Part shown: positions 5,371 to 48,760 of the stretch, one piece after another | Position numbering within the stretch: position 1 is the stretch's first letter | How the letters are laid out: the number at the start of each line of letters is the position of its first letter | From: Octopus sinensis | Lineage: Eukaryota | Assembly (NCBI RefSeq): GCF_006345805.1 | Contig: NC_043025.1 | Span: 4,898,001 to 4,962,000, forward strand | DNA: 64,000 nt | Reading direction: 5' to 3' | The notes under the pieces: model-generated | Database searches by the model: none | What the model saw: the letters and a program-made list of their open reading frames with translations, nothing else | What the model was told of the DNA's origin: nothing | Position numbers and translations under genes: made by a program

Positions 5371-8300
5371 TGAGTGAGAGAGCAGTGCATGCCATCAAAG
5401 TGACACTGGGGTAAAATATACGAAGCCCAGTATACCCATCGTGACTACCTGTCTGATAAGGGTACACTAGGCACATGCATCACAACCGTATGTGCGCGAC
5501 ATGGTGATCTCATATCAAGATAAACAGCACATGACCTTGCAGGTGGGGCGCACTTAGAATTTTCTTCAATTCGAGTAACCCATCCCGCTCAAAAGGTCCC
5601 TGAATAAGGGTTGTTTAAGGATGTTGAATGAAACACCCATGTTTCCAGAGGTGAATTATTCAAACCCCAAAGAATCCCTCTCAACACATGGCTATGATGC
5701 TCCCCCACCACTTCTGCTCGTGATCAGAGATGCACATATCGTCAGCCACTAAGGGACATGCTCAACTGGTTAAGGTCAAACAACTGACAAGCAAATCTGT
5801 GGTATTGAGCAGAATATTTGCTGTAGCCCATCTTTTATACCAAGACAAAACAATGTACATGATAACACTTCCAATCAGTTAAGATCAGAAGCCATGAGAG
5901 CCACTGCCTGGTACTGCATCAGGGCATTAGCAAATCTGTGGTATTGAGCAGAATATTTGCTGTAGCCCATCTTTTATACCAAGACAAAACAATGTACATG
6001 ATAACACTTCCAATCAGTTAAGATCAGAAGCCATGAGAGCCACTGCCTGGTACTGCATCAGGGCATTAGCAAATCTGTGGTATGAGCAGAATATTTGCTG
6101 TAGCCCATCTTTTATACCAAGACAAAACAATGTACATGATAACACTTCCAATCAGTTAAGATCAGAAGCCATGAGAGCCACTGCCTGGTACTGCATCAGG
6201 GCATTAGCAAATCTGTGGTATTGAGCAGAATATTTGCTGGCCTCTTTTATACCAAGACAAAACAATGTACATGATAACATTTCCAATCAGTTAAGATCAG
6301 AAGCCATGGGAGCCACTGCCTGGTACTGCATCAGGGCATTAGCAAATCTGTGGTATTGAGCAGAATATTTGCTGTAGCCCATCTTTTATACCAAGACAAA
6401 ACAATGTACATGATAACACTTCCAATCAGTTAAGATCAGAAGCCATGAGAGCCACTGCCTGGTACTGCATCAGGGCATTAGCAAATCTGTGGTATTGAGC
6501 AGAATATTTGCTGTAGCCCATCTTTTATACCAAGATGAAACAATCTACATGATAACACTTCCAATCAGTTAAGATCAGAAGCCATGAGAGCCACTGCCTG
6601 GTACTGCATCAGGGCATTAGCAAATCTGTGGTATTGAGCAGAATATTTGCTGTAGCCCCTCTTTATACCAAGACAAAACAATGTACATGATAACACTTCC
6701 AGTCAGTTAAGATCAGAAGCCATGAGAGCCACTGCCTGGTACTGCATCAGGGCATTAGCAAATATGTGGTATGAGCAGAATATTTGCTGTAGCCATCTTT
6801 TATACCAAGACAAAAACAATGTACATGATAACACTTCCAATCAGTTAAGACCAGAAGCCATGAGAACCACTGCTGGTACTGCATCAGGACATTAGCAAAT
6901 CTGTGGTATGAGCAGATATTTGCTGTAGCCATCTTTTATACCAAGACAAAACAATGTACATGATAACACTTCCAATCAGTTAAGATCAGAAGCCATGAGA
7001 GCCACTGCCTGGTACTGCATCAGGGCATTAGCAAATCTGTGGTATTGAGCAGAATATTTGCTGTAGCCCATCTTTTATACCAAGACAAAACAATGTACAT
7101 GATAACACTTCCAATCAGTTAAGATCAGAAGCCATGAGAGCCACTGCCTGGTACTGCATCAGGGCATTAGCAAATCTGTGGTATTGAGCAGAATATGCTG
7201 TTTTAGCAATCTTTTATACCAAGAGATGAAACAATCTACATGATAACACTTCCAATCAGTTAAGATCAGAAGCCATGAGAGCCACTGCCTGGTACTGCAT
7301 CAGGGCATTAGCAAATCTGTGGTATTGAGCAGATTATTTGCTGTAGCCCATCTTTTATACCAAGACAAAACAATGTAATGATAACACTTCCAGTCAGTTA
7401 AGATCAGAAGCCATGAGAGCCACTGCCTGGTACTGCATCAGGGCATTAGCAAATATGTGGTATGAGCAGAATATTTGTGCTGAGCCCATCTTTTATACCA
7501 AGACAAAACAATGTACATGATAACACTTCCAATCAGTTAAGATCAGAAGCCATGAGAGCCACTGCCTGGTACTGCATCAGGGCATTAGCAAATCTGTGGT
7601 ATTGAGCAGAATATTTGCTGTAGCCCATCTTTTATACCAAGACAAAACAATTGTACATGATAACACTTCCAATCAGTTAAGATCAGAAGCCATGAGAGCC
7701 ACTGCCTGGTACTGCATCAGGGCATTAGCAAATATGTGGTATTGAGCAGAATATTTGCTGTAGCCCATCTTTTATACCAAGACAAAACAATGTACATGAT
7801 AACACTTCCAGTCAGTTAAGATCAGAAGCCATGAGAGCCACTGCCTGGTACTGCATCAGGGCATTAGCAAATATGTGGTATTGAGCAGAATATTTGCTGT
7901 AGCCCATCTTTTATACCAAGACAAAACAATGTACATGATAACACTTCCAATCAGTTAAGATCAGAAGCCATGAGAGCCACTGCCTGGTACTGCATCAGGG
8001 CATTAGCAAATCTGTGGTATTGAGCAGAATATTTGCTGTAGCCCATCTTTTATACCAAGACAAAACAATGTACATGATAACACTTCCAATCAGTTAAGAC
8101 CAGAAGCCATGAGAACCACTGCCTGGTACTGCATCAGGACATTAGCAAATCTGTGGTATTGAGCAGAATATTTGCTGTAGCCCATCTTTTATACCAAGAC
8201 AAAACAATGTACATGATAACACTTCCAATCAGTTAAGATCAGAAGCCATGAGAGCCACTGCCTGGTACTGCATCAGGGCATTAGCAAATCTGTGGTATTG

Positions 8301-10500
8301 AGCAGAATATTTGCTGTAGCCCATCTTTTATACCAAGACAAAACAATGTACATGATAACACTTCCAATCAGTTAAGATCAGAAGCCATGAGAGCCACTGC
8401 CTGGTACTGCATCAGGGCATTAGCAAATCTGTGGTATTGAGCAGAATATTTGCTGTAGCCCATCTTTTATACCAAGACAAAACAATGTACATGATAACAC
8501 TTCCAATCAGTTAAGACCAGAAGCCATGAGAACCACTGCCTGGTACTGCATCAGGACATTAGCAAATCTGTGGTATTGAGCAGAATATTTGCTGTAGCCC
8601 ATCTTTTATACCAAGACAAAACAATGTACATGATAACACTTCCAATCAGTTAAGATCAGAAGCCATGAGAGCCACTGCCTGGTACTGCATCAGGGCATTA
8701 GCAAATCTGTGGTATTGAGCAGAATATTTGCTGTAGCCATCTTTTATACCAAGACAAAACAATGTACATGATAACACTTCCAATCAGTTAAGATCAGAAG
8801 CCATGAGAGCCACTGCCTGGTACTGCATCAGGGCATTAGCAAATCTGTGGTATTGAGCAGAATATTTGCTGTAGCCCATCTTTTATACCAAGACAAAACA
8901 ATGTACATGATAACACTTCCAATCAGTTAAGATCAGAAGCCATGAGAGCCACTGCCTGGTACTGCATCAGGGCATTAGCAAATCTGTGGTATTGAGCAGC
9001 AGAATATTGCTGTAGCCCATCTTTTATACCAAGACAAAACAATGTATATGATAACCATCTAATCAGTTAAGATCAGAAGCCATGAGAGCCACTGCCTGGT
9101 ACTGCATCAGGGCATTAGCAAATCTGTGGTGGTATTGAGCAGAATATTTGCTGTAGCCCATCTTTATACCAAGACAAAACAATGTACATGATAACACTTC
9201 CAATCAGTTAAGATCAGAAGCCATGAGAGCCACTGCCTGGTACTGCATCAGGGCATTAGCAAATCTGTGGTATTGAGCAGAATATTTGCTGTAGCCCATC
9301 TTTTATACCAAGACAAAACAATGTACATGATAACACTTCCAATCAGTTAAGATCAGAAGCCATGAGAGCCACTGCCTGGTACTGCATCAGGGCATTAGCA
9401 AATCTGTGGTATTGAGCAGAATATTTGCTGTAGCCCATCTTTTATACCAAGACAAAACAATGTATATGATACCACTTCTAATCAGTTAAGATCAGAAGCC
9501 ATGAGAGCACTGCCTGGTACTGCATCAGGGCATTAGCAAATCTGTGGTATTGAGCAGAATATTTGCTGTAGCCCATCTTTTATACCAAGACAAAACAATG
9601 TACATGATAACACTTCCAATCAGTTAAGATCAGAAGCCATGAGAGCCACTGCCTGGTACTGCATCAGGGCATTAGCAAATCTGTGGTATTGAGCAGAATA
9701 TTTGCTGTAGCCCATCTTTTATACCAAGACAAAACAAGTATATGATAACACTTCTAATCAGTTAAGATCAGAAGCCATGAGAGCCACTGCCTGGTACTGC
9801 ATCAGGGCATAGCAAATCTGTGGTATTGAGCAGAATATTTGCTGTAGCCCATCTTTTATACCAAGACAAAACAATGTACATGATAACACTTCCAATCAGT
9901 TAAGATCAGAAGCCATGAGAGCCACTGCCTGGTACTGCATCAGGGCATTAGCAAATCTGTGGTATTGAGCAGAATATTTGCTGTAGCCCATCTTTTATAC
10001 CAAGACAAAACAATGTATATGATAACACTTCTAATCAGTTAAGATCAGAAGCCATGAGAGCCACTGCCTGGTACTGCATCAGGGCATTAGCAAATCTGTG
10101 GTATTGAGCAGAATATTTGCTGTAGCCCATCTTTTATACCAAGACAAAACAATGTATGATAACACTTCCAGTCAGTTAAGATCAGAAGCCATGAGAGCCA
10201 CTGCCTGGTACTGCATCAGGGCATTAGCAAATCTGTGGTATTGAGCAGAATATTTGCTGTAGCCCATCTTTTATACCAAGACAAAACAATGTACATGATA
10301 ACACTTCCAATCAGTTAAGATCAGAAGCCATGAGAGCCACTGCCTGGTACTGCATCAGGGCATTAGCAAATCTGGGTATTGAGCAGAATTTTGCTGTAGC
10401 CCATCTTTTATACCCAACAAAACAATGTATATATGATACCACTTCTAATCAGTTAAGATCAGAAGCCATGAGAGCCACTGCCTGGTACTGCATCAGGGCA
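5371..10500. mobile_element. ~560-bp non-coding element inserted in (ATT)n, with its terminal 139 bp amplified into an array
   Basis: The unique body 5371-5790 has a second, truncated copy at 10903-11529. Both copies have (ATT)n runs on each side. Confidence 0.75.
5790..10500. repeat. 139-bp tandem satellite, ~34 highly similar copies
   Basis: gcaaatctgtggtattgagcagaatatttgc...cctggtactgcatcagggcatta recurs at 5791, 5930 and onward to ~10500. Confidence 0.97.
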
Positions 10501-10902
10501 TTTTATTATTATTATTATTATTAAATAATGTGATGAGCTGGCAGAATCGTTAGCACACCGGACGAAATGCTTAGCGATGTTTCATCTATCGTTACATTCA
10601 GAGTTGGTTTTGCCTTTCATCATTTCAGGGTCGATAAATTAAGTACCAGTGAAACACTGGGGATCAATGTAATCAACTAGTCCCCTCCCTCAAAATTTCA
10701 GGCCTTGTACCTTCAGTAGAAAGGATTTTTATTATTATCACTACTATCATTCCACCAAGGTTGACTTTGCCTTTCATCCTTTCGAGGTCCATAAATTAAG
10801 TACCAGTGAGACATTGAGGGTCAAAGTAATTGACTCATCCCCTCCCCATATATAGCTGCCCTTGTGGCAAAATTTGAAACCAATTATTATTATTATTATT
10901 AT

Positions 10903-20295: not shown

Positions 20296-20329
20296 AGTAA
20301 TCTTTTCTTTTTCTGCTTGTTTTTTTCAG
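20296..20329 (+). promoter_or_regulatory. Candidate 3' splice acceptor upstream of the giant coding exon
   Basis: A branch-like AGTAAT is followed by the polypyrimidine tract tcttttctttttctgcttgtttttttCAG ending at 20329, 227 nt before the ATG. This implies one or more upstream exons, which I could not locate. Confidence 0.6.
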
Positions 20330-20556
20330 TGTGACCCCTGACTGACCAGAAGCAGGCCTGCCTCCAACCAGTCCAATCCAGTCAGGACAAGTCATCTGAC
20401 CAATCCTTCTATTTATTAATCTATTTATCTACGTACCTATTTATCTGTCTATTTACCTGCCTGCTTAAATATCTACATTTATTTATCTACATATCTATAT
20501 TTATCTATATTCTTTATATATACACACATATATATATATATATACATATCTACCCA

Positions 20557-23500
20557 ATGGCTGTACAATTCTCAAACAGGACCCTGTTGTCCACCACTGA
20601 CCAAAGCAACCACCGATACTGGGCCGAGTTTGAATACAAACCAGTGAAAGAAGGAAGCAGCATGTATGTCTTCAAAGGTCGACTCAACGGTGATGGCCCC
20701 AGATCGGGAGAATACTGTGCTGTTAAGATGTTCCGCAAATTTGTTGCCGAACCGTCCGACTGGAACCAATACGTGGCAAAGGCAAACATGGCAAACATCT
20801 TGGCGGAGAAATTCAACAACAAGCTGAAAGGCCAGTATAAGGTACAGTTCTTGATTCCGATTCTGGCACATCTTGACACGGTGTCTACCTGTACCGGTTG
20901 TCTTTACTGGTGTTCTGACATCAAGGCCATTGACACAGACGATTGTGTGGTCGTTGAACCCTATTTACGGCACGGTTTTCGAAAGTTTTATCGCAACAGT
21001 CCCTTAAAAGGAGCTGAGAATGCTTACATCTTGCAGGCCTTTAGCCATTTTACTGCTTGTGAAACTTGCGATACCCTGGTCTGTGGTCTCCAAGGTATTG
21101 CCCACGAGAATGAGTTCAAACTGACCAATCCCATTATACACTCATCTGACAAGCAATGGGGGTCAACAGATAAAGGTCGGTCGGGCATAAAGAGTTTTTT
21201 TAGGAATCACTCGTGCAATCGGATCTGTAAAACTTTGAACTTGCCGTTTCTGCTGGAGACAAATGAAATCAACGGCAGCGTGTCGACAATAAATAACGCT
21301 GAAGACGAAGAGGCCGTGGAAGATGATGATGTGAAGAATTCCGATGAAGCGAGAAAAACGAAGATGAGAGATGCAAACGTTGGGACTGATTCTGACAACT
21401 TTGGTGAAGAGACACTCGTTAAGGAAGCAGTCGAAACAACAAAGAAAGATAACGAGGGTGATGATAATGACAGAGATGGGAAACAAGATGAGGAGGATGC
21501 TGGCAAGGAAGATAAAAAAGCTGTGGGAGAGAAACTGCATGAGAACACCGAAGAGGATGCAGAGCATAAGGAAGAACAGATAGATGCCAATGTGGAAAAG
21601 AAGCCAGGAGAAATTGCTGAAAAGAGCAAAGAAAAGAAAGCGGAAAATAAAATAGATAAAAGTGTGGAAACTGAGCCATTTAACAATGTGGAAAACCTGG
21701 ATGGTTTTGGTGTAAGAAACGAATCTGTGATGAGTGAGAAAAAAATACCGGTTATAAGCGAGGGAGTCCAAGCCACTGTAAATGCACAAGTTGAGCCCAA
21801 TGCTAGTCCAAGAATGACAGCTGGGGTGTTTGTGGAACAGGGCCCTCTTTTAAGGGTGGAAAGTGAACCCGGCATATATCTGGAAGAGGGCCCATCAGTA
21901 AGCGCAGCAGACAGAACTGATAAAAGCGTGGAAGTAGATGCTGATGAAAAATTGATGGCAAATAAAGTTGATGAAGGTGTACAGAAGAATCTCGAGTCGG
22001 TCGGAAGTGTTACTGAGTTAGATGTCGGAACTGATGGGGAAGCAGCTTCTTATGTAGCTGGGACCCCTTTGAAAGTAATTCGAGGACATACTGGAGCAGC
22101 GTCGACACCAAGCAATGAAATCACTGTGATATCTGGATCTTTTGATGAGAGCTTCAAGGGGAGCCCAACGTCTGATGGCCGTGACCACTCCTACAGTAGC
22201 GATAGTAGCATTGATGAAATCAGCTACGACAATCTCATTGCTGAAAAGAAACCATTGGAACCCACAGAATTTGCTGGAGGAGAAACGAGTGTCCATGGCA
22301 AACACAATTTGGTACCAAACTATGAGGACGAGGAGAATGAAGACACAGGAATGGATTCAGGACCACCACATCACCGAGATGAAATTTACTTGCCGCCAAA
22401 GATTCTGCAGACGCCACCCAGCAACCGCACTGGGCGAATATTTGTGGTTCCAGTCTGCCGACAGACAGGTTCCGTGAGGAGCGCTACAAGTTCTGCTTCA
22501 GTGACGCCGCCAGTTTTCTTAGAAACGGTCAGCCCAATCTGTCGGTGCCCAGCAAGTTTCCAGCCCATAGCCAACAGCGACGATGTTGGCATTGGCGTTG
22601 GAAATAGCCCCAGTAGCAGGACCTCTCCTCTTCCACCTCTCTCTCCTCTAAGTACAGAAGAAATAAAAACAGATGGATGGTCAGAGCAGAGTTCAGATTT
22701 GGGCCCATCTGCAACACCCAACGATCAGCCTAATCCCCCTTCACCTTTATTTTCCTCAACTCCTACTCCAGTTGAACTGCCTCCTCTTCCTTCTCCTGTT
22801 CCTACTGAATCGCCTGCCCTTCTTTCTCCTCCTCCTCCTGCTGAATTACCTCCCCTTCCTCCTACCCCACATCCTACTGCCACTGCTAGGAACAGCATCA
22901 CCACCCCACCATCGCCTTCAACAACAACAACAACATCATCAGCTTTGCCTCGGTGTTTAAGGCAACTGACCAGTTGCTGTTCGATGCGTATGTCCAAGAA
23001 GAAGAAGAAGAAGAAAAAGGAGAAAGACGAGAGCCCCGGGTCGGTTACAGATCCTGTCACACTGTCACAGACTTCAAAAACTGAGGTGCCGGTGGAAACC
23101 CCCGGTTCCAAAAGCAGTGGGAAAAAACGGAGCAGGAGTTGGCGTACGGCGTGGCGCAGTCCGAAGACAAGCGGAACTTGTAGCACCTCTGATACAGAGG
23201 CATCCAGTCCAAAGAAGCCTGCCATGGTGTCAATTGAAATGAGTGCCCCAGAGGAGAGTGACAGCGCCATTTGTCCGAAGAACCCATTCCAAATGGTAAC
23301 AGATGGCCACGACGACACCAACCGCAACAACAACAATAACGACGATGATTATTACATCAATGCTTACATCAACAACAATAACAATAATATTAATAATAAT
23401 AATGACACTAGTGGTGTTGGTGGGAGTGAAGATCAGTATTATATGAACAACAACAGTAACCAAATCCACACCCATCAGATGGTTTTGCAAAAGGCTTTTG

Positions 23501-26500
23501 TGGAAAAGGGGCAACGCTTTACCTCTCCCCCACCACTGCTTCTTGACTCTGGACAGCCAGAGAGTAGCACCTATTGGGAGTACCATTGTATGAATCCAGA
23601 TGAAAGAGGAGCTGTTGGCGGTAGTGGTTGTAGGTGTTGTGGTGGTGTCGGTGGGAGCTGCAGCTGTTGTGGAAGCAGTGGCGAAAGGGATTTTAATCGA
23701 ATGGTTTCCGATAGCAAGACCCCACCACAGCTGGAAACCAGCACGAATGGCAGCAGTATCTCCATGACAACAGCAGACACCGACGCTGGTGCCGGTGACC
23801 AAAGTCATCATGAGTACGACACTCTTCCAAGACGAACTTTCGATATGGGTTTCGAGCCAAACCGTGGTGGTATCTGCGATACATTACCATGCAGGGGTGA
23901 CCTTTTCACCGTCGAAGTTCACTACAACGGTGAAGCTGTCCCAGAGTACAGGGCCGACCCAGCTGCAGCAATGTCGACAATGACAACAGCAGTGATAACA
24001 CCGCCAAAATTAGAAGCAATGACCGTAGCAACAACGTCTGCAATGCCATCGTCATCGTCTTTGACAGAAATCATAGAAATGGTGCCGAAGGACAGTATCG
24101 GAGACGTTGATCCAAGATTACCTGTTGACGGATACCCTCCACTGATGCATGACCATGAGAGCAGTAGCGGTCAGACCTTTTCTGGGTCTGAAACGACGGG
24201 TGTAACGACAGCAGGCCGAGTTGGAAGCGTTGGCGTTGCATTACGAGCGGAAGAGAATGATGGGGAAGAGGAGGAGAGGGCGGTGGCAGAAGAGGAAATT
24301 TTAGTGGCATCATCCTCCTTGGGATCAACAGCGCAAACTGCAGGAGGAGCACTGACAGATGCAGCAGCGGCAGCAGCAGAAACAATGGAGTTAACTCTAG
24401 CTGACAGAATACCAACATCTTCACAGCTGCCATTCTTAAAATCTTCAGTAGACACCCTTAATTCTAGAACCCCGGACACTGAAGGAACCATTTCTGTATT
24501 TTCAGGGTCAGTTCAAACGGGTACCGACAACACTAGTATCGCAGATGCCTCAACGGCTGGTACCAAACCCATGACACCAAAATGCTATGACGACGTTGCT
24601 TCGTCACTCGCCACTACTCCGACACCGTTGTCATTATCATCATCCTCATCTTCATCATCGACGCTATTGTTATTGCCCGGTGGGGGAACGTTACAAAAAG
24701 CTCGGTCAGAAGTCATGGAGAAAATCTCAACATCAACAGACGATCGTTCGTCGCAGGGTCCGAGGTCGGACATCCCGGACATTCCAGACATCCGGCTTTT
24801 GCTTTCAGAAGATGTCGATGATGATGATGATGGTGGTGGTGGTGATGGTGATGGTGATGGTGATGGAAAAACTATTGCTGCTGCTGGTGGTGGTGGTGGT
24901 GGGGCCGAAGATACTGCTGACATACCGTATATTGATGAATGCGATTCAGATGACAGTGTACAACAACAACAACAACAACAACAGCAACAGTGTGAACAAG
25001 ATGAGCAAAGTTCTGGCAAGGCTCGCATTGATACTTATGTCCTTGATCACCGTGTGGGTAAACATCAACAGCAATCTCTTGCAGTACCTTCCGATGGCAC
25101 ATGCGGTGAAGATCAGCAACAACAACACCAACAACTACTTGAGGTACCTTTTAGTCATACATATGGTGAAGAACAGCAACAGCGTCAACAATCCCTCGAG
25201 GTACCTTACAGCGACATAAATATCAAACAACAGCAATCTGAAGTACCTATTGATGTATGTTGGCAAGAAAAGCAACAACAATATGAGGTACCTGTTAGTG
25301 GTACATATGAACAACAGCAATACAAAGAATCCGAGGTACCTGTTCATATCTATGGTCAAGAACAACAACATGAGTTGCCTGTTAGTGACACATATGGTCA
25401 ACAACAACAGCAATGCCAGCCATCTGAGGTACCTTTTAGTGACATACATGGTCGCGATCAGCAGCAACAAACTGAGGTACCTTCTAGTGACATATATAGT
25501 CAACCACAAACTGAGGTACCTTCTAGTGACATATATAGTCAACCACAAACAGAGGTACCTTCTAGTGACGTATATAGTCAACACCAAACTGAGGTACCTT
25601 CTAGTGACATATATAGCCAACAGCAACAAACTGAGGTACCTTCAAGTGACATATATAGCCAACAGCAAACTGAGGTACCTTCTAGTGACATATATAGTCA
25701 ACAGCAAACTGAGGTACCGTCTAGTGACATATATAGCCAACAGCAACAAACTGAGGTACCGTCAAGTGACATATATAGCCAACAGCAAACTGAGGTACCT
25801 TCTAGTGACATATATAGTCAACAACAAACTGAGGTACCTTCTAGTGACATATATAGTCAACAACAAACTGGAGTACCTTCTAGTAACATATATAGCCAAC
25901 AGCAACAAACTGAGGTACCTTCTAGTGACATATATAGTCAACAGCAAACTGAGGCACCACCTACTGACGTACATGGGCAACAACACTATCAGCAATCTGA
26001 GGTACCTTGCAGTAATATATATAGCCAGGAACAAAATCAACAAACTGAGGTACCATCTACTGACATATATGGCCAACAACAGCAATGTCAACAATCTGAG
26101 GTACCTTCTACTGACATATATGGTCAACAGCAACAACATCAACAATTTGAGGTACCCTCTACTGACATATATGGTCAGCAAGAATATCAACAACCTGAAG
26201 TACCTTCTAGTGAAATATATAGTCAACAGCATCAGCTCCAACAAACTGAGGTACCTTCTAGTAACATATATAATCAACAATCTAAGGTACCTTCTACTGA
26301 CATATATGACCAACAACAGTATCAACCATCTGAGGTACCTTCTGCTAACATACATAGTCAACAACAGCAGTTTGAGGTACCCTCTACTGATACATATGGT
26401 CAACACCAGCACCAACAGAGTGAGGAACCTTCTAGCAACATCTATAGTCCACAACAGCAATTTGAGGTACCCTCTAGCGATATATATGGTCAACAACAAC

Positions 26501-29500
26501 AATCTCAGGTAGCTTCTAGTGACATATATAATCAGCAACAACAAAAAACTGAGGTACCTTCTAGCAACATATATCGTCAACAACAGCAATTTGAGGTACC
26601 CTCTACTGACGTTTTTGGTCAGCATCAGTACCAACAAACTGAGAGACCTTCTGACATACGTGATCAACAACAATATCAACCATCTGAGGTACCATCTACT
26701 GATATATATCGTCAACGACAGCAATTTGAGGTACCCTCTACTGATGTATATGGTCAACAACAGTACCAACAAACTGAGAGACCTTCTACTGACATATACA
26801 ACCAACAGCAATATCAACCATCTGAGGTACCTTCCAGTGACATATATAGTCAACAACAGCACCAATTTGAGGTACCCTCTACTGATGTATATGGTCAACA
26901 ACAATATCAGCAATCTGGGGTACCTTCCAGTGATATATATGGTCAGCAACAACAATCTGCAATACCCTTTAGTAACATATATAGTCAACAACAACAACAA
27001 ACTGAGGTACCTTCTAGCAATACATATAGTCAACAACAGCAATATGAGGTACCCTCTACTGACATATATGGTCAACAACAATATCAACCATCTGTAGTAC
27101 CTTCTACTGGCATGTATAGTCAACAACAGCAATTTGAGGTACCCTCTACCGACATACATGGTCAACAACAATATCAACCATCTGTGGTACCCTCTACTGG
27201 CATGTATAGTCAACAACAGCAACATGAGGTACCCTCTACTGACATACATAGTCAACAATATCAACCATCTGTGGTACCTTCTACTGGCATGTATAGTCAA
27301 CAACAGCAGCATGAGGTACCCTCTACTGACATACATGGTCAACAACAATATCAACCATCTGTGGTACCTTCTACTGGCATATATAGTCAACAACAGCAAC
27401 ATGAGGTACCCTCTACTGACATACATGGTCAACAACAATATCAACCATCTGTGGTACCTTCTACTGGCATGTATAGTCAACAACAGCAACATGAGGTACC
27501 CTCTACTGACATACATGGTCAACAACAATATCAACCATCTGTGGTACCTTCTACTGGCATGTATAGTCAACAACAGCAACATGAGGTACCCTCTACTGAC
27601 ATATGTAGTCAACAACAACAATATCAACCATCTGTGGTACCTTCTACTGGCATGTATAGTCAACAACAGCAACATGAGGTACCCTCTACTGACATACATG
27701 GTCAACAACAATATCAACCATCTGTGGTACCTTCTACTGGCATGTATAGTCAACAACAGCAACATGAGGTACCCTCTACTGACATACATGGTCAACAACA
27801 ATATCAACCATCTGTGGTACCTTCTACTGGCATGTATAGTCAACAACAGCAATATGAGGTACCCTCTACTGAGATACATGGTCAACAACAATATCAATCA
27901 TCCGTGGTACCTTCTACTGGCATGTATAGTCAACAACAGCAATATGAGGTACCCTCTACTGAGATACATGGTCAACAACAATATCAACCATCCGTGGTAC
28001 CTTCTACTGGCATGTATAGTCAACAACAACAATATGAGGTACCCTCTACTGACATATATGGTCAACAACATCATCAGTCCGAAGTACCCTCTAGTGATAT
28101 ATATTGTCAACAACAACAATCTGAGGTACCCTCTACTGACATATGTAGTCAACAACAACACCGAGAAACTGAGGTACCCTCTTGCAAGATATATAGTCAA
28201 CAACAATATCAACAGTCTGATGTACCTTCTAGTGACTTCTGTGGTCAACAACAACAGCAAGATCAGACCTGTGGGGAGTCTAAACCAGATATGCCACATG
28301 TACCTACTGGTGCTTCATGTGTTCAGTCTGGTCGTAATACTAAACATGTATCTTTTGACATACCCTCTGATCAATATGACGTTGAACAGGAATCACCTGA
28401 TGTACACTCTGATCAACAGAGCAATGATGTTCGACCTGGATTTCCTGTGGGACCTTCTGATCAATGCGTACCATTTCGTGTACTTGATGACACCCATGGT
28501 GTTAGCTCTGAACAATTTGTTGTGGTACCTAATAGGAATGATGGGCCTGGTTTTACTGTCAGTGAACAGATACCGACTGAGATGGCTTTTAAGAGGTCCA
28601 GTTTTGGAAATGAAAACGAACAGCCAGTCTCTGATTCCCAGACAGGTGTCAGTACGTATAGCTCTGCATCTCAGCAGGTACCTTTTGAAGGCCTACCAGT
28701 GTGTAAGTCTTACGGGAGTCAACAACAGCAAGAACAACAACTTTATGAGGTACCAGAGAATACAGACCGAAATGTCAATGCTGGTCAAGATGATGGAAAT
28801 TTAGGGCGAAATTACATTGACACTCAGAAATCTGATTGTTCAAAAACACATTTGCTGCCATCTGCAAATGGGAATTACATGACTAAAGAACTTGTCCAAG
28901 GTGGTAAACGGTTGGAGGATGATAAAGCGAGTGGGGATTCCTTTCACAATTTATCGAAAGAGGGTTCTGAGACTTTTCTTCCAGAACTTTCATTAGACAT
29001 TTCTTCTAAGAAATATTCAGGTTTTGAAACGGTAATCCCAGAACGGTCATTGGAAGAAAATCTCAGGGACCATTTTGATCTTGAGAAGGACAGCGATGAC
29101 AAGGGTGGGTGCGGTGTAGTCAGTAGCAGTGTCAGTGGTGGTGGTGGTGGTGGTGGTGGTTGTGGAGGTGTGGACTTTACGGAGAATTCTACGTCAAGTA
29201 CAGCCTTAAATTTTCCAAGTTTCTCCCCTGATGGTTTCGTCAATGCTGGGTTAAATGCACCAGATGCAGCACTGTCTGCTAATGTATCTTCTTCAGGCGC
29301 TCATTCTTCTGTAGATTCTCAGAATCTGTTCGATAGTGATTTTCAAGGCCAGAGGAGTGTTGAGTCTTTAGTCGAGGACATCTTTGATCACGATTCTTCT
29401 GGTATAGCTGGAAATAGGAATGCAACCCCTGGCGTCACAAAGACAGTCTGCTTCCAAGAAGATTCTAAAATAAGATATGATGATGGTGAGAGTGACATTT

Positions 29501-30717
29501 TAGAAATCCGTCATCCGTTTCTTGAAGTGATTCCTGAAGAGGGTGAAAATATATATGAAGATATTTGTGTGATTTCAGAAGAAGATCTGGAAAACAAACC
29601 AAGATATTCTAAACCCTTGTTGCTAGAACTTAGAGCTGAGACTCCCAAGTTGGACAAACACTGCTTCCATTATGGTGATTCTACAGGATGCAGTGCAAAT
29701 CTGTATGAAGAACTCAAATTCTCTGGTTATTCAGATCAAGGCCCCAAAAAATCAATAGATGATGCTGTTGCAGGTTCTGATGCTGCTTCTTTGCGGAATT
29801 TTGCTACAAAATCTTCTGTCCTTCCTGCCATGGCCAGTCTGGGGCAAACAGCAGTGCAGGCCCCAAAATGGGATTCACCTGAGCAGGCTGTCAATCTTGG
29901 AGGCACAATTCCGGAACGAAGTTCATCAAGTTGCTCGACAGCTTATCGCATCACTACGGCACAGCAGCCGGCTTGGTCATTGCTGTCTCAGCCGACGCCA
30001 TCACCAGTAGCATCCTCGTCCTCCTACAATTTGCTCAAGGACCCAGGAACAACTGCAGTGGTGGGTGGTGATGGACATGATGCGACAACAGACGGTTACG
30101 GTCTCGGTCACCAGGCATCGCCCATCGCTGTTGCCCCTGAGTATACGCCACAGCCAGCAGTTGTGACACCTGACCCCAAGTCCAACATCAAAGATGATAA
30201 ACCACTGTCTGACAGGAGACTGAGTGGGCCCTACATCGAAACAGAAAGGAGCATTGAAATCAAGTTCCGCATAAATCCAACACCAAGCACTATCCCTAGT
30301 GGCGGCGGTGGTGGTGGTGGTCGTGGTGGTGACAGAAGTGCCCTTGTAACTGGTGTCGGTGGTGTTGGTGGTAACATCGGAAGCAGGAGTGTTGGTGGTG
30401 TTTACCTGCAACCGAATCTGGAAATCGAAGAATGCAACGAGATCATATCGGTATGCGAGGTGGATCGACGTCCGGATGGATTAGCGGGAACAAACAGCTC
30501 TGGGAGGAGTGACAGTCGACACAGCAGAAACAACAGCAGCAGCGGCAGCAGCTACGGTCGCGGTGGCAGTAGTAATGTTGATGTCGTCAACGAAGATGAG
30601 GCGCAGAGGCAGAGGCAGTGCCTGGAGGCGTTAATCAGAGAAAGTTCCAGTCGGAGACTAAGCACACAGGAGGCATTGCAGACCCTATTGGCACCCCACT
30701 GGTTACCACATACTTGA
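20557..30717 (+). CDS. Giant 3386-aa protein from a single coding exon: N-terminal alpha-kinase-like domain (probable pseudokinase), acidic and Pro-rich regions, and a long Q/S/Y/P tandem-repeat region
   Basis: Uninterrupted 10,161-nt ATG-to-TGA ORF with no SINE insertions in an otherwise SINE-saturated window. Residues ~20-230 carry alpha-kinase motifs in order: PVKEG, CAVK, LAEKFN, VVEPYL, LQAFSHFT, LVCGLQG, LTNPIIHS, GSTDKGRSG, FFRNHSCNRIC. Confidence 0.9.
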   Translation: MAVQFSNRTLLSTTDQSNHRYWAEFEYKPVKEGSSMYVFKGRLNGDGPRSGEYCAVKMFRKFVAEPSDWNQYVAKANMANILAEKFNNKLKGQYKVQFLIPILAHLDTVSTCTGCLYWCSDIKAIDTDDCVVVEPYLRHGFRKFYRNSPLKGAENAYILQAFSHFTACETCDTLVCGLQGIAHENEFKLTNPIIHSSDKQWGSTDKGRSGIKSFFRNHSCNRICKTLNLPFLLETNEINGSVSTINNAEDEEAVEDDDVKNSDEARKTKMRDANVGTDSDNFGEETLVKEAVETTKKDNEGDDNDRDGKQDEEDAGKEDKKAVGEKLHENTEEDAEHKEEQIDANVEKKPGEIAEKSKEKKAENKIDKSVETEPFNNVENLDGFGVRNESVMSEKKIPVISEGVQATVNAQVEPNASPRMTAGVFVEQGPLLRVESEPGIYLEEGPSVSAADRTDKSVEVDADEKLMANKVDEGVQKNLESVGSVTELDVGTDGEAASYVAGTPLKVIRGHTGAASTPSNEITVISGSFDESFKGSPTSDGRDHSYSSDSSIDEISYDNLIAEKKPLEPTEFAGGETSVHGKHNLVPNYEDEENEDTGMDSGPPHHRDEIYLPPKILQTPPSNRTGRIFVVPVCRQTGSVRSATSSASVTPPVFLETVSPICRCPASFQPIANSDDVGIGVGNSPSSRTSPLPPLSPLSTEEIKTDGWSEQSSDLGPSATPNDQPNPPSPLFSSTPTPVELPPLPSPVPTESPALLSPPPPAELPPLPPTPHPTATARNSITTPPSPSTTTTTSSALPRCLRQLTSCCSMRMSKKKKKKKKEKDESPGSVTDPVTLSQTSKTEVPVETPGSKSSGKKRSRSWRTAWRSPKTSGTCSTSDTEASSPKKPAMVSIEMSAPEESDSAICPKNPFQMVTDGHDDTNRNNNNNDDDYYINAYINNNNNNINNNNDTSGVGGSEDQYYMNNNSNQIHTHQMVLQKAFVEKGQRFTSPPPLLLDSGQPESSTYWEYHCMNPDERGAVGGSGCRCCGGVGGSCSCCGSSGERDFNRMVSDSKTPPQLETSTNGSSISMTTADTDAGAGDQSHHEYDTLPRRTFDMGFEPNRGGICDTLPCRGDLFTVEVHYNGEAVPEYRADPAAAMSTMTTAVITPPKLEAMTVATTSAMPSSSSLTEIIEMVPKDSIGDVDPRLPVDGYPPLMHDHESSSGQTFSGSETTGVTTAGRVGSVGVALRAEENDGEEEERAVAEEEILVASSSLGSTAQTAGGALTDAAAAAAETMELTLADRIPTSSQLPFLKSSVDTLNSRTPDTEGTISVFSGSVQTGTDNTSIADASTAGTKPMTPKCYDDVASSLATTPTPLSLSSSSSSSSTLLLLPGGGTLQKARSEVMEKISTSTDDRSSQGPRSDIPDIPDIRLLLSEDVDDDDDGGGGDGDGDGDGKTIAAAGGGGGGAEDTADIPYIDECDSDDSVQQQQQQQQQQCEQDEQSSGKARIDTYVLDHRVGKHQQQSLAVPSDGTCGEDQQQQHQQLLEVPFSHTYGEEQQQRQQSLEVPYSDINIKQQQSEVPIDVCWQEKQQQYEVPVSGTYEQQQYKESEVPVHIYGQEQQHELPVSDTYGQQQQQCQPSEVPFSDIHGRDQQQQTEVPSSDIYSQPQTEVPSSDIYSQPQTEVPSSDVYSQHQTEVPSSDIYSQQQQTEVPSSDIYSQQQTEVPSSDIYSQQQTEVPSSDIYSQQQQTEVPSSDIYSQQQTEVPSSDIYSQQQTEVPSSDIYSQQQTGVPSSNIYSQQQQTEVPSSDIYSQQQTEAPPTDVHGQQHYQQSEVPCSNIYSQEQNQQTEVPSTDIYGQQQQCQQSEVPSTDIYGQQQQHQQFEVPSTDIYGQQEYQQPEVPSSEIYSQQHQLQQTEVPSSNIYNQQSKVPSTDIYDQQQYQPSEVPSANIHSQQQQFEVPSTDTYGQHQHQQSEEPSSNIYSPQQQFEVPSSDIYGQQQQSQVASSDIYNQQQQKTEVPSSNIYRQQQQFEVPSTDVFGQHQYQQTERPSDIRDQQQYQPSEVPSTDIYRQRQQFEVPSTDVYGQQQYQQTERPSTDIYNQQQYQPSEVPSSDIYSQQQHQFEVPSTDVYGQQQYQQSGVPSSDIYGQQQQSAIPFSNIYSQQQQQTEVPSSNTYSQQQQYEVPSTDIYGQQQYQPSVVPSTGMYSQQQQFEVPSTDIHGQQQYQPSVVPSTGMYSQQQQHEVPSTDIHSQQYQPSVVPSTGMYSQQQQHEVPSTDIHGQQQYQPSVVPSTGIYSQQQQHEVPSTDIHGQQQYQPSVVPSTGMYSQQQQHEVPSTDIHGQQQYQPSVVPSTGMYSQQQQHEVPSTDICSQQQQYQPSVVPSTGMYSQQQQHEVPSTDIHGQQQYQPSVVPSTGMYSQQQQHEVPSTDIHGQQQYQPSVVPSTGMYSQQQQYEVPSTEIHGQQQYQSSVVPSTGMYSQQQQYEVPSTEIHGQQQYQPSVVPSTGMYSQQQQYEVPSTDIYGQQHHQSEVPSSDIYCQQQQSEVPSTDICSQQQHRETEVPSCKIYSQQQYQQSDVPSSDFCGQQQQQDQTCGESKPDMPHVPTGASCVQSGRNTKHVSFDIPSDQYDVEQESPDVHSDQQSNDVRPGFPVGPSDQCVPFRVLDDTHGVSSEQFVVVPNRNDGPGFTVSEQIPTEMAFKRSSFGNENEQPVSDSQTGVSTYSSASQQVPFEGLPVCKSYGSQQQQEQQLYEVPENTDRNVNAGQDDGNLGRNYIDTQKSDCSKTHLLPSANGNYMTKELVQGGKRLEDDKASGDSFHNLSKEGSETFLPELSLDISSKKYSGFETVIPERSLEENLRDHFDLEKDSDDKGGCGVVSSSVSGGGGGGGGCGGVDFTENSTSSTALNFPSFSPDGFVNAGLNAPDAALSANVSSSGAHSSVDSQNLFDSDFQGQRSVESLVEDIFDHDSSGIAGNRNATPGVTKTVCFQEDSKIRYDDGESDILEIRHPFLEVIPEEGENIYEDICVISEEDLENKPRYSKPLLLELRAETPKLDKHCFHYGDSTGCSANLYEELKFSGYSDQGPKKSIDDAVAGSDAASLRNFATKSSVLPAMASLGQTAVQAPKWDSPEQAVNLGGTIPERSSSSCSTAYRITTAQQPAWSLLSQPTPSPVASSSSYNLLKDPGTTAVVGGDGHDATTDGYGLGHQASPIAVAPEYTPQPAVVTPDPKSNIKDDKPLSDRRLSGPYIETERSIEIKFRINPTPSTIPSGGGGGGGRGGDRSALVTGVGGVGGNIGSRSVGGVYLQPNLEIEECNEIISVCEVDRRPDGLAGTNSSGRSDSRHSRNNSSSGSSYGRGGSSNVDVVNEDEAQRQRQCLEALIRESSSRRLSTQEALQTLLAPHWLPHT
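20614..21240 (+). other. Alpha-kinase (eEF2K/MHCK/TRPM7-type) domain with substituted catalytic residues
   Basis: K57 (AVK) and the Zn-ligand pattern H164/H218/C220/C224 are retained. Consensus DLQG reads GLQG (G177, codon GGT at 21085) and consensus TDP reads TNP (N191, codon AAT at 21127). Confidence 0.85.
25075..28260 (+). repeat. Coding tandem-repeat array within the giant ORF (EVPSSDIYSQQQQ-type units, with a 90-bp higher-order unit in the distal part)
   Basis: Units of 36-42 bp encode (T)EVPSSDIYSQQQ at ~25470-25950, followed by diverged units. Near-identical 90-bp units encode QQQQHEVPSTDIHGQQQYQPSVVPSTGMYS at ~27030-28050 (atacatggtc recurs at 27331, 27421 and 27511). Confidence 0.95.
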
Positions 30718-42244: not shown

Positions 42245-43562
42245 GATATATGTATACACACGTGTAGGTTTTCTGTAGTATCATATATATACATGTATCA
42301 GTTTACTATAGTGTGATATATATACATATGTGTCAGTTTTCTTTCGCCTAATATATATATACATATTTGTCAGTTTTTTGTGGAAAAATATACACACATG
42401 TTATGGTTTTCGGCATCATAATATATACACATATATGTCAGTTTTCTGTAGCATAATATATACACCTGTGTCAGTTTTCTGTAGAATAATATATACACAT
42501 ACGTGTCAGTTTTCTGTAGAATGATATATACACATGTGTCAGTTTTCTGTAGCATAATATATACACCTGTGTCAGTTTTCTGTAGAATAATATATACACC
42601 TGTGTCAGTTTTCTGTAGAATGATATATACATATATGTGTCAGTTTTCTGTAGCATAATATATACACATGTGTCAGTTTTCTGTAGCATAATATATACAC
42701 ATACATGTCAGTTTTCTGTAGAATAATATATACGCCTGTGTCAGTTTTCTGTAGAATGATATATACATATATGTGTCAGTTTTCTGTAGCATAATATATG
42801 CACATGTGTCAGTTTTCTGTAGAATGATATATACACCTGTGTCAGTTTTCTGTAGCATAATATATACACCTGTGTCAGTTTTCTGTAGAATGATATATAC
42901 ACCTGTGTCAGTTTTCTGTAGCATAATATATATACCTGTGTCAGTTTTCTATAGAATAATATATACACATACATGTCAGTTTTCTGTAGAATAATATATA
43001 CACCTGTGTCAGTTTTCTGTAGAATGATGTATACACATATGTGTCAGTTTTCTGTAGAATGATATATACACCTGTGTCAGTTTTCTGTAGCATAATATAT
43101 ACACTTATGTTTCAGTTTTCTGTAGAATGATATATACACATGTCAGTTTTCTGTAGAATGATATATACACCTGTGTCAGTTTTCTGTAGCATAATATATA
43201 CACCTGTGTCAGTTTTCTCTAGCATAATATATATACACCTGTGTCAGTTTTCTATAGAATAATATATACACATACATGTCAGTTTTCTGTAGAATAATAT
43301 ATACACCTGTGTCAGTTTTCTATAGAATAATATATACACATACATGTCAGTTTTCTGTAGAATAATATATACACCTGTGTCAGTTTTCTGTAGAATGATA
43401 TATACACATGTCTCAGTTTTCTGTAGCATAATATATACACATGTGTCAGTTTTCTGTAGAATGATATATACGCATGTGTTAGTTTTCTGTAACATAATAT
43501 ATACACCTGTGTCAGTTTTCTGTAGCATTATATATACACATGTGTCAGTTTTCTGACACATG
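42245..43562. repeat. ~33-36-bp minisatellite (tgtgtcagttttctgtag(c/a)at(a/g)atatatacac)
   Basis: More than 30 units. The array ends in the perfect hairpin catgtgtcag-tttt-ctgacacatg. Confidence 0.92.
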
Positions 43563-45469: not shown

Positions 45470-45682
<213 letters not shown>

Positions 45683-48572
45683 CTATAATAATAATAATAT
45701 AATAATAATAATAATATTGTGTACAGTGCTCAGGTGCACTACAACTCATCTAAAGTGTATATATAATCAGGTGTAGTTTCGACGGATTTCGGAAAGCATG
45801 AGGGCCTTAAGGATGCAGTGTCATGGCAGTCAACAACTGATGCAGGCAGTTTATTCCACGCTTCAGCAACCCTGAGCGTGAAAAAATGTTTCCGAAAGTC
45901 ATGGGAGCTGTATTGTTTTCTGACTTTGTAGGCATGTCCACGTGTGTTAGACACATGGAGATCAAAAAGGTGTTCAGTGTTGTTGTTGGTGAGGTGGTTG
46001 ATAACTTTGTGGGTGTTTACCAAGTCCGTCGCCAAACGCCGGAGCTTCAGTGAATCCATGCCCAGGGAAACAAGGCGCTCAGAATATGGTAGGTGTCTGA
46101 TGGAGGGTATGCGTTTGGTTGCACGTCTCTGGACAGCTTCCAGGAGGTCAATGTTCTGTGCGAGATAGGGGTTCCAAACTGATGATGCGAATTCCAAGTG
46201 TGGTCGTACCATAGCTGTATACAGTTTTAAATAGATGGCTGGAGAGCGGCTAACAAAAGACCTGCTGAGTGATGCCAAGACACCCTCGGCCTTCCTGACA
46301 ATCTTAGAGATATGCTTTGACCAACGCAAATCACTGCTGACAGTGATGCCTAGGTCACGCTCGCAAGAGGATTTCTTGATATCAGTGTTGTGGAGGGAGT
46401 ATGTGAACGCAGGGTTTTTTCTCCCAAAATGCATGGTGGTACACTTGTCCACAGCCAGTTTCAGTTGCCAGTCTGTGATCCATTGCTGCATTGTGTCTAG
46501 GTCTGATTGCAGGAAAGAGTTGTAGACATCAGGATCTGTCCTCTTGATTTCAAGGTACAGCTTGATGTCGTCTGCATATTTCAATACTGTGGCATTCCTT
46601 AAATTGGCATCTATGTCGTTAATGTATGCCACAAACAAGAGGGGACCAAGGACAGATCCCTGTGGTACACCCGATGACATCTCATATGGTGTAGAGTGCT
46701 GTCCTAAACTGTAACTACCTCCTTTCGGCTGAGGATGAAGGATTTCAACCAGTTAAAAAGGTCATCCCCCACACCCATTGCAGAGAGTTTCACCATAAGC
46801 CTTTTGTGTGGCACAGAGTTGAAAGCCTTAGCAAAGTCAAGGTAGACAACATCCACCCATGAGCCACTGTCAGTAATCTGAGTAATGTCCTCAAGGAACT
46901 CGACAAGCTGGTCACTGCAGCTGGAGTTAGGGACAAATCCATATTGTGAGGGTCGGATGAGACTGTGAGAGCTCCAGAAGTTCCAGAGTGTTTCTCTGAC
47001 ACACGATTCCATCAGTTTTGCAATACAGCTAGTGAGACTGACTGGGCGATAGTTGACAGGTGATGTGCGGTCGCCCTTTTTGAACAGAGGAATGACACTG
47101 GCAGTTTTCCACTGCTCCGGAGTAGCACCATTGTTGAGACAGTACTGGAAGAAAATAGAAAGCTGGTGTAAAAGGAAGTGCCTGCCACGTTTGAGAAGCA
47201 GGTATGTAACTCCATCGAGACCAGGGGAGGCAAAGTTGCGCTTACTTTGAAGGTGACGTCGCAGCATTGCAGGTGTAAATTCCATAGTTGTTATGGAGTT
47301 TGCTGTTAGTGATGGTGAAGATGGTACATTTTGACTTTCAACAGTGAATATGTTTGCATAGCACTCGGCAATGAGTTCTGCGCATTCCTTGGGGTCGTCA
47401 GTGATCTGGTTTGTGTGAGGGTTGCGAAGAGGGCCCACTGGAGAGTGAGGTCTCTGCTTCGAATGCACATATTTCCAGAAAACCTTGCTGTCAGGATTGG
47501 CTGCTATGCACTGTTCAAATTCAAGCACTGCTTTTTTTGTCACTTGCTTGAGATGGTTGGAGGATTTATTCCGCTTCTTCCTGTTGGTGTCTGATTTATG
47601 CAACTTGTATTCCCGTTCAGCAGTCCGACGTTCCTTCCTGGCAAGTCGGACCGCTGAAGTTTCCCAAATTGCCCTTTTGGCGGTTCTTCTTTTTGTTTAC
47701 GTGGCACTGATGCTGCACATGCTGCCCATATTGAGTCCAGGATACTCTGGAGTATAGTATTCACATCTCCAGAGTTGTAGAACTCACGCCAGTTTGGGTG
47801 CTGTAGTTCAGTGTGGTACAGGTTCCAATCTGCTCTCTTCCAATCGAAGGAAGCAGATTGGAGATGGTTCAGGTGTTTGTTGCCCGCAAGAGCCAGATTG
47901 GCGATGATCATAGCATGATCAGAGTCACCTAGAGGTTCCTCCGTTGTGCAATTGATAACTGCTTCAGGAGTTGTGGTGAAGAGCAGGTCCAAGGTGTTGT
48001 CGCCTCTTGTTGGAGAGGTGACTACTTGTGACCAGTTTGAGTCCAGCACAAGCTCAACAAAATCGTTTGCACTCTGTGCCAATGGAAGGTCTCCCAATCG
48101 ATCTCAGGATGATTGAAATCGCCTGCAATAAACACATAAGTGGCTGTTTTCCTGGCAGCAGCTCGGAGGACATTGCAAAGCTGTGTGTCCCGATGGTAAC
48201 TTGGGGGACGATAAACAACGCCAAGCAGGAGTGTTGACATGGTCATACGCACGTCACAGAAAAAAACTTCTTCTTGTGATTCGTTCAAATCGGCACAAGG
48301 AATTACCAAAAAATTTGAACGAACGTAGACCCACACCACCACCACGGCGGTTAGTGCGGTCCTTACGGAAAGGTTGTACCCCGTAATGTTGAAAACCCCA
48401 TCACAGAGTAAGGAATGCGCCCATGTTTCCGTGACAGTGATGAAGTCAGGGTCAACACTTCTGACGTAGGCGTTGAACAAATGTATTTTGTTGCATAAAC
48501 TGCGAGCATTTAAGGACAACAATTTGTACCCTGCTCGCAGTTTATGATGGTGTGTAGAGGATGGCAGGTTGT
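45683..48572 (-). mobile_element. CR1/L2-like non-LTR retrotransposon (APE endonuclease + reverse transcriptase ORF2), frameshifted
   Basis: Consecutive minus-strand ORF pieces encode the endonuclease motifs LNARSL, TETW, YRPP, GDFN, TLDLLF and SDH. RT motifs are PLFKKG, NYRPVSL, YLDFAKAF, GVPQGSVLGPLLF and YADD, followed by the C-terminal RDLG, RPHLE and FFTLRV..WN.LP. An (ATT)n-type 3' tail lies at ~45683-45716. Confidence 0.92.
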
Positions 48573-48654
<82 letters not shown>

Positions 48655-48700
48655 CATCTATCTATCTATCTAGCCATCTGTCTATCTATCTAGCCATCTG

Positions 48701-48752
<52 letters not shown>

Positions 48753-48760
48753 CCTACCTA

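Follow-up and report, generated by a model that had tools for sequence, protein, structure and literature searches.

A lineage-specific tandem array of a Tyr- and Gln-containing unit joined to a predicted alpha-kinase pseudokinase in Octopus sinensis

Two kinds of described protein provide the closest comparisons for the locus considered here, the uncharacterized gene LOC115225996 of Octopus sinensis. The first is ALPK3, in which the kinase domain is C-terminal, behind immunoglobulin-like domains. ALPK3 has been described as the alpha-kinase family’s first pseudokinase; the same account reports undetectable catalysis, proposes a scaffolding role, and describes a retained “catalytic” Asp1774 (PMC9698156). 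For the alpha-kinase MHCK-A, an N-lobe lysine, Lys645, is described as invariant, and Asp766 as both invariant and catalytically essential (PMC4876393). The second is p130Cas (BCAR1), whose substrate domain is described as a disordered region with 15 YxxP motifs in 306 residues, a phosphorylation target of Src-family kinases to which SH2 proteins bind (PMC3983058). Condensation of Cas through multivalent phosphotyrosine has also been described (PMC8791637). LOC115225996 lies in a stretch of 64,000 nucleotides (hereafter the window; G000:C29:4898001-4962000 in a genome of 2.72 Gb), where a single open reading frame joins an N-terminal alpha-kinase domain to a long tail containing a tandem array of a short Tyr- and Gln-containing unit. 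Our tentative reading is that the array is a translated, disordered, acidic, multivalent array of a short motif, anchored to a kinase fold that is non-catalytic. This is the explanation to which we give the most weight, while holding it somewhat short of probable.

What is the organization of the array? Parsing of the translation gives 71 in-frame units over window positions 25081–28299 (residues 1509–2581, 1073 aa), with the consensus EVPS[ST]DIY[GS]QQQ and unit lengths of 36–60 nt. All 70 spacings between units are divisible by three: 42 nt occurs 23 times, 48 nt 22 times, 39 nt 10 times, 45 nt seven times, 51 nt four times, and 36, 54, 57 and 60 nt once each. Across the array, the coding frame contains no stop codon, and the other five frames contain 3, 166, 4, 90 and 64. 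Tandem Repeats Finder reports nested periods over 25422–28253, namely 42 nt (61 copies) and 90 nt (24 copies), plus 120, 180 and 453 nt. The units fall into five layers (Table 1). In block A, nine 39-mers are on average 2.5 nt apart, and two neighboring triplets of 120 nt agree at all but 3 positions. In block C, the mean distance among nine 90-mers is 3.1 nt, and three of these have the same sequence. The middle between these blocks is far more diverged, with a mean of 7.2 of 33 nt differing over 23 units. The E-type units of block C mostly lack the canonical tyrosine, with His at that position in 9 of 11 units, Cys in one and Tyr in one. The original prediction had described a layered, in-frame repeat with diverged flanks, a short-unit block and near-identical 90-nt dimers, and this description is borne out. 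Its size of about 1000 residues can now be given exactly, its short-unit block has units of 39 and 42 nt rather than 36–42 nt, and its regularly spaced tyrosines need correction at the E-type units of block C.

The array appears to be confined to this gene. A 301-nt probe from the array, compared with the octopus’s own genome, gave 13 matches, all in the array itself at window positions 25273–28201, so it is not a dispersed satellite. Among proteins of 30–1860 aa, none of 8000 candidates scored against the array reached E <= 0.001, a search that could miss a longer repeat-only protein; in the searches of proteins of 1861–5924 aa and 453–2000 aa, the query was the kinase domain only. In Pfam and among proteins of 30–1860 aa, the repeat thus matches no characterized family.

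Is the repeated unit constrained? Units were compared over their first 11 codons in a fixed register, using the ratio of amino-acid-changing to silent differences (pN/pS). Among units, amino-acid-changing differences are rarer than silent ones: pN/pS comes to 0.54 over the full set of 71 units, of which 53 are distinct, to 0.38 in the diverged middle (23 units) and to 0.13 in block A, compared with 0.96 for the same DNA in the +1 frame. It is 0.76 in the flanks and 0.92 in block C, where two unit types are mixed. Pro3 is present in all 70 in-register units, encoded by CCT, CCC, CCA or CCG. Conservation extends to the 38 units outside blocks A and C, where the consensus residue is kept at Glu1 in 32, Val2 in 32, Pro3 in 37, Ser4 in 28, Ser/Thr5 in 32, Asp/Asn6 in 30, Ile/Val7 in 28, Tyr8 in 27 and Gln10–12 in 30–32. 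The low ratios and the conservation of residues together show EVPS[ST]DIY[GS]QQQ to be under moderate purifying selection.

The composition of the array combines many glutamines with a strong negative charge. Gln makes up 26% of residues and Ser 14%, followed by Pro (8.5%), Val (7.9%) and Tyr (7.3%, or 78 of the 1073 residues); Gln, Asn, Ser, Gly, Tyr and Pro together make up 61%, and Ile, Leu, Val and Met 14%. There are 120 Asp and Glu residues versus 16 Lys and Arg, such that 12.7% of residues are charged and the net charge is −104. A tyrosine occurs every 5–19 residues. Sites matching [IVM]Y[GSNCRD]QQ number 39 inside the array and none outside it. YxxQ occurs 43 times, versus 20.3 +/- 3.5 in composition shuffles, and YxxP eight times. 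An SQ/TQ cluster domain, which would suggest a substrate region for phosphatidylinositol 3-kinase-related kinases (PIKKs), was considered and rejected: SQ/TQ occurs 34 times, below the 56.7 +/- 5.8 in 1000 composition shuffles. Single-sequence AlphaFold modeling of the array suggests disorder, with a mean predicted local distance difference test (pLDDT) score of 38 and values below 40 for array residues 1–640. Only block C (array residues about 650–990) contains predicted beta-strands, with a 30-residue period at pLDDT 50–65, and these occur only in the best of five models (mean pLDDT 38.2; the others range from 23.9 to 29.6). Beta-stacks modeled on perfect repeats are a common artifact, and the weak, untrustworthy hint of stacking here may be one.

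The array is encoded within a stop-free stretch of the forward strand at window positions 20335–30717, whose earliest in-frame ATG lies at 20557. NCBI already lists the gene as “uncharacterized protein LOC115225996 [Octopus sinensis]” (P0002, 3296 aa), the sole match among 626 candidates of 1861–5924 aa when the kinase-domain region was used as the query. The first 300 residues of the frame are 100% identical to P0002, and the full comparison gives 1729 identical residues before the first gap, 831 after the last and no mismatches. Three in-frame gaps, which measure 27, 31 and 32 residues and lie without exception in the repeat, make P0002 shorter than the genomic frame. As canonical introns, the first two gaps can be placed as GT..AG, only because each unit opens with GAG followed by GTA, and the third cannot be placed; the gaps may represent alleles, collapsed evidence from transcripts or choices of the gene model. 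Because an acceptor-like tract precedes the ATG (Table 1), a single exon, longer than 10 kb, probably contains the entire coding region; if the tract is an acceptor, the 5′ untranslated region would lie in one or more upstream exons. None of the 24 listed sequencing runs is on record as RNA. Contigs of four runs, of unrecorded kind and from four studies, are collinear with pieces of the frame. Within the array they cover 25914–26605, 26222–26652, 26319–26751, 26825–27054 and 28015–28502, and among the contigs listed from these runs none spans the whole array. In the Gln run at window position 25398, in the 5′ flank of the array, contigs of two of the four runs have an extra CAA (+1 Gln), an in-frame length difference. 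Among open-access papers and preprints, we found none on LOC115225996 or on such cephalopod alpha-kinases; the papers there that combine alpha-kinase and octopus concern TRPM channels.

The N-terminal domain belongs to the alpha-kinase family with confidence, and it is the only Pfam domain in the protein. The match to the Alpha_kinase profile scores 97.5 bits against a cut-off of 21.3 and covers profile positions 2–185 of 185. An AlphaFold model of the domain, built with a 99-row alignment, has a mean pLDDT of 89.6, and Foldseek finds 44 PDB matches at E <= 0.001, of which those listed, down to rank 44, are all alpha-kinase domains. The best are those of MHCK-A, an Entamoeba alpha-kinase, eEF2K, TRPM7 and ALPK1, with a template-modeling score of about 0.63–0.65 to MHCK-A. 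The alignment used for individual residues (A1) consists of the octopus domain, the two cuttlefish domains discussed below and 96 of 148 other representatives, chosen by eye as near-full-length single-stretch matches (52 were left out).

Does the domain retain what a kinase needs? Both catalytic aspartates are replaced, by Gly177 and Asn191. In the 96 relatives, column 177 is Asp in 54, Gly in 22 and Asn in 17, and column 191 is Asp in 48, Thr in 18 and Asn in 8. MHCK-A structures in which the same aspartates are mutated, D756A (4zs4) and D766A (3lmi), are titled “inactive” in the PDB. The P-loop is altered as well: at column 36, Arg is present in 40 and Lys in 6 of the 46 relatives that keep both aspartates, whereas the octopus residue is Met and the cuttlefish residue Lys; the equivalence of Met36 with Arg592 is inferred from the G-x-x-R-x-A pattern. 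The octopus domain keeps Lys57, Glu134, His164, Gly180, Asp205, His218, Cys220 and Cys224, of which Lys57 is equated with Lys645 of MHCK-A through the family alignment. The columns of His164, His218, Cys220, Cys224, Gly202, Asp205, Gly207 and Gly210 are conserved in at least 94% of the 96 relatives; we take the His and Cys positions to be the C-lobe zinc site and the Gly-rich positions to be the N/D-loop. The presence of Gly177, Asn191 and Met36 in a confident alpha-kinase fold therefore supports the prediction, made from sequence, that the domain is a pseudokinase. The repeat had originally been described as fused to a pseudo-alpha-kinase in an architecture outside the known ALPK types. The fusion stands, and the architecture does differ from those of the vertebrate ALPKs.

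The two closest relatives are cuttlefish orthologues, P0003 (an “unnamed protein product” of Acanthosepion pharaonis, 1603 aa) and P0004 (a European Nucleotide Archive record, 1530 aa). Their N-terminal alpha-kinase domains are 56%–57% identical to the octopus domain, and Gly177 and Asn191 are common to all three proteins. Outside the kinase domain, the only clear conservation is an island of about 56 residues (Table 1). The central part of each cuttlefish protein is also a tandem array, of an 18-residue AEPAGEATVSQETTVETS repeat, with about 21 units in one protein and about 14 in the other (19 and 14 when motif anchors are counted). These arrays are rich in Thr, Glu, Ala and Ser, contain no Tyr and no Gln runs, and have net charges of −84 and −51. 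Because the cuttlefish array is unrelated, the octopus array is lineage-specific, as had been predicted, and its Tyr/Gln unit was not the ancestral partner of the kinase domain.

In the tree of alpha-kinase domains, the octopus and cuttlefish proteins form a clade with support of 100, and P0007 is its sister with support of 90. P0007 is an orthologue (57%–83% identity) of a short octopus paralogue, L010, that lies 82 kb upstream (G000:C29:4836060-4836746). P0007 keeps DLQG and LTDP, and L010 keeps both aspartates (VDDLQG, LTDP). In the assembly, L010 consists of two matching pieces in different frames that overlap at residues 30–42, indicating a frameshift or a short intron. Of the other paralogues in the octopus genome, one lies 700 kb away and has CDFRG and LSCP, and a third, on a different contig, is canonical. 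More broadly, the family is made up of short, stand-alone “vwkA-like” proteins, with named members in Lingula, Aplysia, Nucella, Elysia and Sinanodonta, in which the domain starts at residue 1 and is 31%–41% identical to that of octopus; most are 230–350 aa long and tailless. One or both catalytic aspartates are missing from 50 of the 96 relatives, with Gly or Asn at column 177, and Thr, Asn, Ile or others at column 191. All 50 are confined to one of the two halves of the tree (57 rows, with support of 98), within which the Gly state needs at least seven changes. Judged by these residues, the alignment indicates that molluscs have many probable alpha-kinase pseudokinases, a set as yet undescribed. 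As for the octopus gene, its history probably began with a local duplicate of a short alpha-kinase. The duplicate would have lost its catalytic residues before the octopus/cuttlefish split and gained a long acidic tail, within which each lineage would have expanded a repeat of its own.

Table 1. Features of the LOC115225996 locus in window coordinates
Feature	Position	Strand	Evidence
Pyrimidine tract ending CAG, likely 3′ splice acceptor	20300..20329	+	Sequence inspection
Coding frame, 3386 codons + stop	20557..30717	+	Open reading frame; matches LOC115225996 except for 3 in-frame gaps within array
Alpha_kinase domain (Pfam PF02816), residues 32-224	20650..21228	+	Pfam E 1.3e-27; AlphaFold; Foldseek
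Met36, at conserved P-loop basic position (putative Arg592 equivalent, MHCK-A)	20662..20664	+	Family alignment
Lys57, retained N-lobe lysine (putative Lys645 equivalent, MHCK-A)	20725..20727	+	Lys in 92/96 relatives
Gly177, replacing catalytic Asp (Asp756, MHCK-A; D-x-Q-G motif)	21085..21087	+	HMMER alignment, LVCGLQG vs VVDIQG
Asn191, replacing catalytic Asp (Asp766, MHCK-A; T-D-P motif)	21127..21129	+	HMMER alignment, LTNP vs YTDP
Conserved island ILQTPP...GR.IV.PV...PPVF.E, residues 603-658	22363..22530	+	P0003: 44% over 57 columns, E 1.3e-6; P0004: E 0.001
Poly-Gln run (CAA)10, just upstream of array	24960..24989	+	Tandem Repeats Finder; translation
Array 5′ flank, 8 diverged units	25081..25473	+	Translation parsing
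Block A, 12 units of 39/42 nt, EVPSSDIYSQQQ(Q)T, with higher-order period of 120 nt	25474..25950	+	Unit comparison; pN/pS 0.13
Diverged middle, 24 units of 36-51 nt	25951..27045	+	Parsing; pN/pS 0.38 (23 units compared)
Block C, 11 dimers, EVPSTDIHGQQQYQPS + VVPSTGMYSQQQQH, each 87-93 nt	27046..28035	+	Unit comparison
Array 3′ flank, 5 diverged units	28036..28299	+	Translation parsing
Weak C-terminal island ..IEIKFRINPTP, cf. cuttlefish ..IITFRINISP	30214..30285	+	48% over 25 columns, E 0.12

What might such an array do? Under the reading that we favor, it would display one short linear motif many times, as a docking or phospho-acceptor platform for which the p130Cas substrate domain is a working precedent, and the motif rather than the bulk properties of the chain would be what is used. 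The most plausible functional residues would be the tyrosines, in their acid-Ile-Tyr-Gly/Ser-Gln-Gln context. Cytosolic Tyr kinases prefer Ile at −1 and acidic residues upstream, and Src-type kinases prefer Ile at −1 and Gly at +1; the tyrosines may, on this basis, be phosphorylated. The multivalent Ser/Thr/Tyr phospho-array of the original prediction is possible. Growth of the array would have occurred by repeated in-frame unequal exchange of blocks of one, two or three units, with the 90-nt dimers and the 39/42-nt block as the youngest layers.

Several observations weigh against this reading. First, the cuttlefish array is free of Tyr, so what the orthologues share is length, acidity and low complexity, not a Tyr motif. 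Second, in block C, the youngest block, a His at the Tyr position has been propagated through most of the E-type units. Third, the best-kept part of the unit is EVP, ahead of Tyr, and pN/pS in block C, where two unit types are mixed, is 0.92. Fourth, the excess of YxxQ is a trivial consequence of the copying of one unit. Fifth, the window is rich in non-coding minisatellites, so expansion needs no function. Sixth, the kinase and SH2 preferences behind the Tyr reading are general background. Finally, that a protein is being made from the LOC115225996 frame is something we infer.

The Tyr-free cuttlefish array and the spread of His in block C make a second explanation nearly as likely: a minisatellite expansion would have been tolerated within an acidic disordered spacer, of which only length, charge and unfoldedness are used, whose unit sequence has no specific partner, and whose layers reflect recent unequal crossing-over in a repeat-prone genome. 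We regard this as a serious, if doubtful, alternative. It fits with the single clearly conserved island outside the kinase domain, with the many non-coding tandem arrays nearby (a 139-bp unit in 34 copies and a 33-bp unit in 39, for example) and with the high pN/pS of block C and the flanks. The 27, 31 and 32 array residues that P0002 lacks also suit it, since they suggest a copy number that is labile or hard to assemble. However, a spacer valued only for its bulk properties would not be expected to show the pN/pS of block A and the old middle, so far below that of the frame control, or to keep Pro3 in every in-register unit despite the four codons available, or to leave EVPS[ST]DIY.QQQ recognizable even in the most diverged flank units. 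The frame-keeping of all 70 spacings also argues against such a spacer, although selection against frameshifts alone would suffice to explain it.

Could the array instead be a prion-like or self-assembling domain, in which tyrosines drive condensation or 30-residue dimers stack as a beta-solenoid or amyloid-like scaffold? The content of Gln, Ser and Tyr, the dominance of Q/N/S/G/Y/P residues, the close spacing of the tyrosines and the beta-strands modeled in block C are all in keeping with this idea, which the original prediction had raised together with phase separation and structural biomaterials. Prion-like domains are typically low in charge, however, and the array has a net charge of −104 and a 14% share of Ile, Leu, Val and Met. 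A FUS-type or prion-like composition, with few charged residues, was accordingly rejected at 12.7% charged. The beta-stack, moreover, is in the best of five models only and falls below trustworthy confidence. Nor does the protein look like secreted material. By inspection, its N-terminus (MAVQFSNRTLLSTTDQSNHRYW) has no signal-like hydrophobic stretch, and Met1 is aligned with the start of 85% of the 96 stand-alone relatives; with no hydrophobic leader and an N-terminus aligned to those of short stand-alone alpha-kinases, a secreted structural material is unlikely. The analogy is weakened on each of these counts, and we consider a self-assembling domain improbable.

A more specific version of the docking idea, with the array as an octopus invention, is a long shot. 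About 40 acid-Ile-Tyr-x-Gln-Gln sites, once tyrosine-phosphorylated, would serve as pYxxQ docking sites and gather STAT-type SH2 proteins, for which pYxxQ is a ligand, in a signaling condensate; the dead alpha-kinase would act as its anchor, and the cuttlefish proteins would use a Ser/Thr-based acidic array for the same task. Least likely of all, to the point that we set it aside, is that the frame is not a working gene but an annotation artifact or decaying retrocopy whose repeat is open by chance: the lack of any listed run on record as RNA and a single coding exon longer than 10 kb, a length unusual for octopus genes, speak for it, but 3386 codons without a stop, unit pN/pS below 1, two cuttlefish orthologues with the same N-terminus, substitutions and conserved island, and the 64–166 stops in the array’s +2 frame and two minus-strand frames all speak against it.

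Two further features lie in the linker between the kinase domain and the array. A Pro-rich stretch, PPLPSP...SPPPPAELPPLPPTP (window 22700–23000, residues about 715–790), is a predicted, possible SH3/WW-type ligand, and a run of eight Lys (window 23050–23080, residues about 813–823) is a predicted, possible nuclear-localization-like element.

The window region is generally prone to tandem expansion. Six large non-coding minisatellites lie at 2458–3980, 5790–10502, 42253–43555, 54964–55783, 59137–59995 and 60688–61215, with units, in the same order, of 136 bp (11 copies), 139 bp (34), 33 bp (39), 127 bp (6), 172 bp (5) and 177 bp (3). On the minus strand, window positions 45739–48573 contain broken frames of a non-LTR (non-long-terminal-repeat) retrotransposon, with matches to reverse transcriptase (E 4e-18 and 4e-15) and endonuclease (E 5e-7). 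Arrays of (TCTA)n occupy 45477–45686, partly over the 3′ end of the retrotransposon, and 48573–49021, just past its other end.

What are the implications of this locus? First, octopus and cuttlefish appear each to have rebuilt a predicted disordered tail independently, through the tandem expansion of short units that are unrelated to one another. This provides a natural comparison for asking whether selection in repeat-built disordered regions acts on a motif or on bulk properties. Second, the gene would represent a second, independent pseudokinase lineage in the alpha-kinase family besides ALPK3. Third, the lack of a catalytic Asp in 50 of the 96 aligned lophotrochozoan relatives suggests a common occurrence of non-catalytic alpha-kinase folds among such animals. 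Any wide consequence depends on expression and on a binding partner.

How does the octopus protein compare with described systems? To ALPK1, eEF2K, MHCK-A and TRPM7, its kinase domain is matched only at E 1e-5 to 1e-8. Sup35 N-domains and FUS-type low-complexity domains have Gln/Tyr-rich short repeats and regularly spaced aromatic residues; unlike these, the octopus array has about two acidic and two to three aliphatic residues per unit, and its charge is strongly negative. By analogy, the array resembles the substrate domain of p130Cas in being a predicted disordered, Pro-containing region with many regularly spaced short Tyr motifs, and the protein also has a Pro-rich stretch (PPLPSP...LPPLPPTP). 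The array differs in having eight YxxP versus 43 YxxQ in 1073 residues, and it has no sequence similarity to p130Cas. Pfam finds no SH3 or other Cas domain in the octopus protein; membership of the p130Cas family is ruled out by the lack of an SH3 domain, by YxxQ in place of YxxP, and by the absence of similarity. The likeness to ALPK3 lies in an alpha-kinase fold that is substituted at cleft positions conserved elsewhere, and the difference is that both catalytic aspartates are lost in octopus; the two proteins are not orthologous. The nearest counterparts are the cuttlefish orthologues, which share with the octopus protein a predicted pseudokinase N-terminus, the island ILQTPP...PPVF, and an extended acidic tail that has a tandem array at its center, but which are half its length, have an array of 18-residue Tyr-free units, and have Lys rather than Met at position 36.

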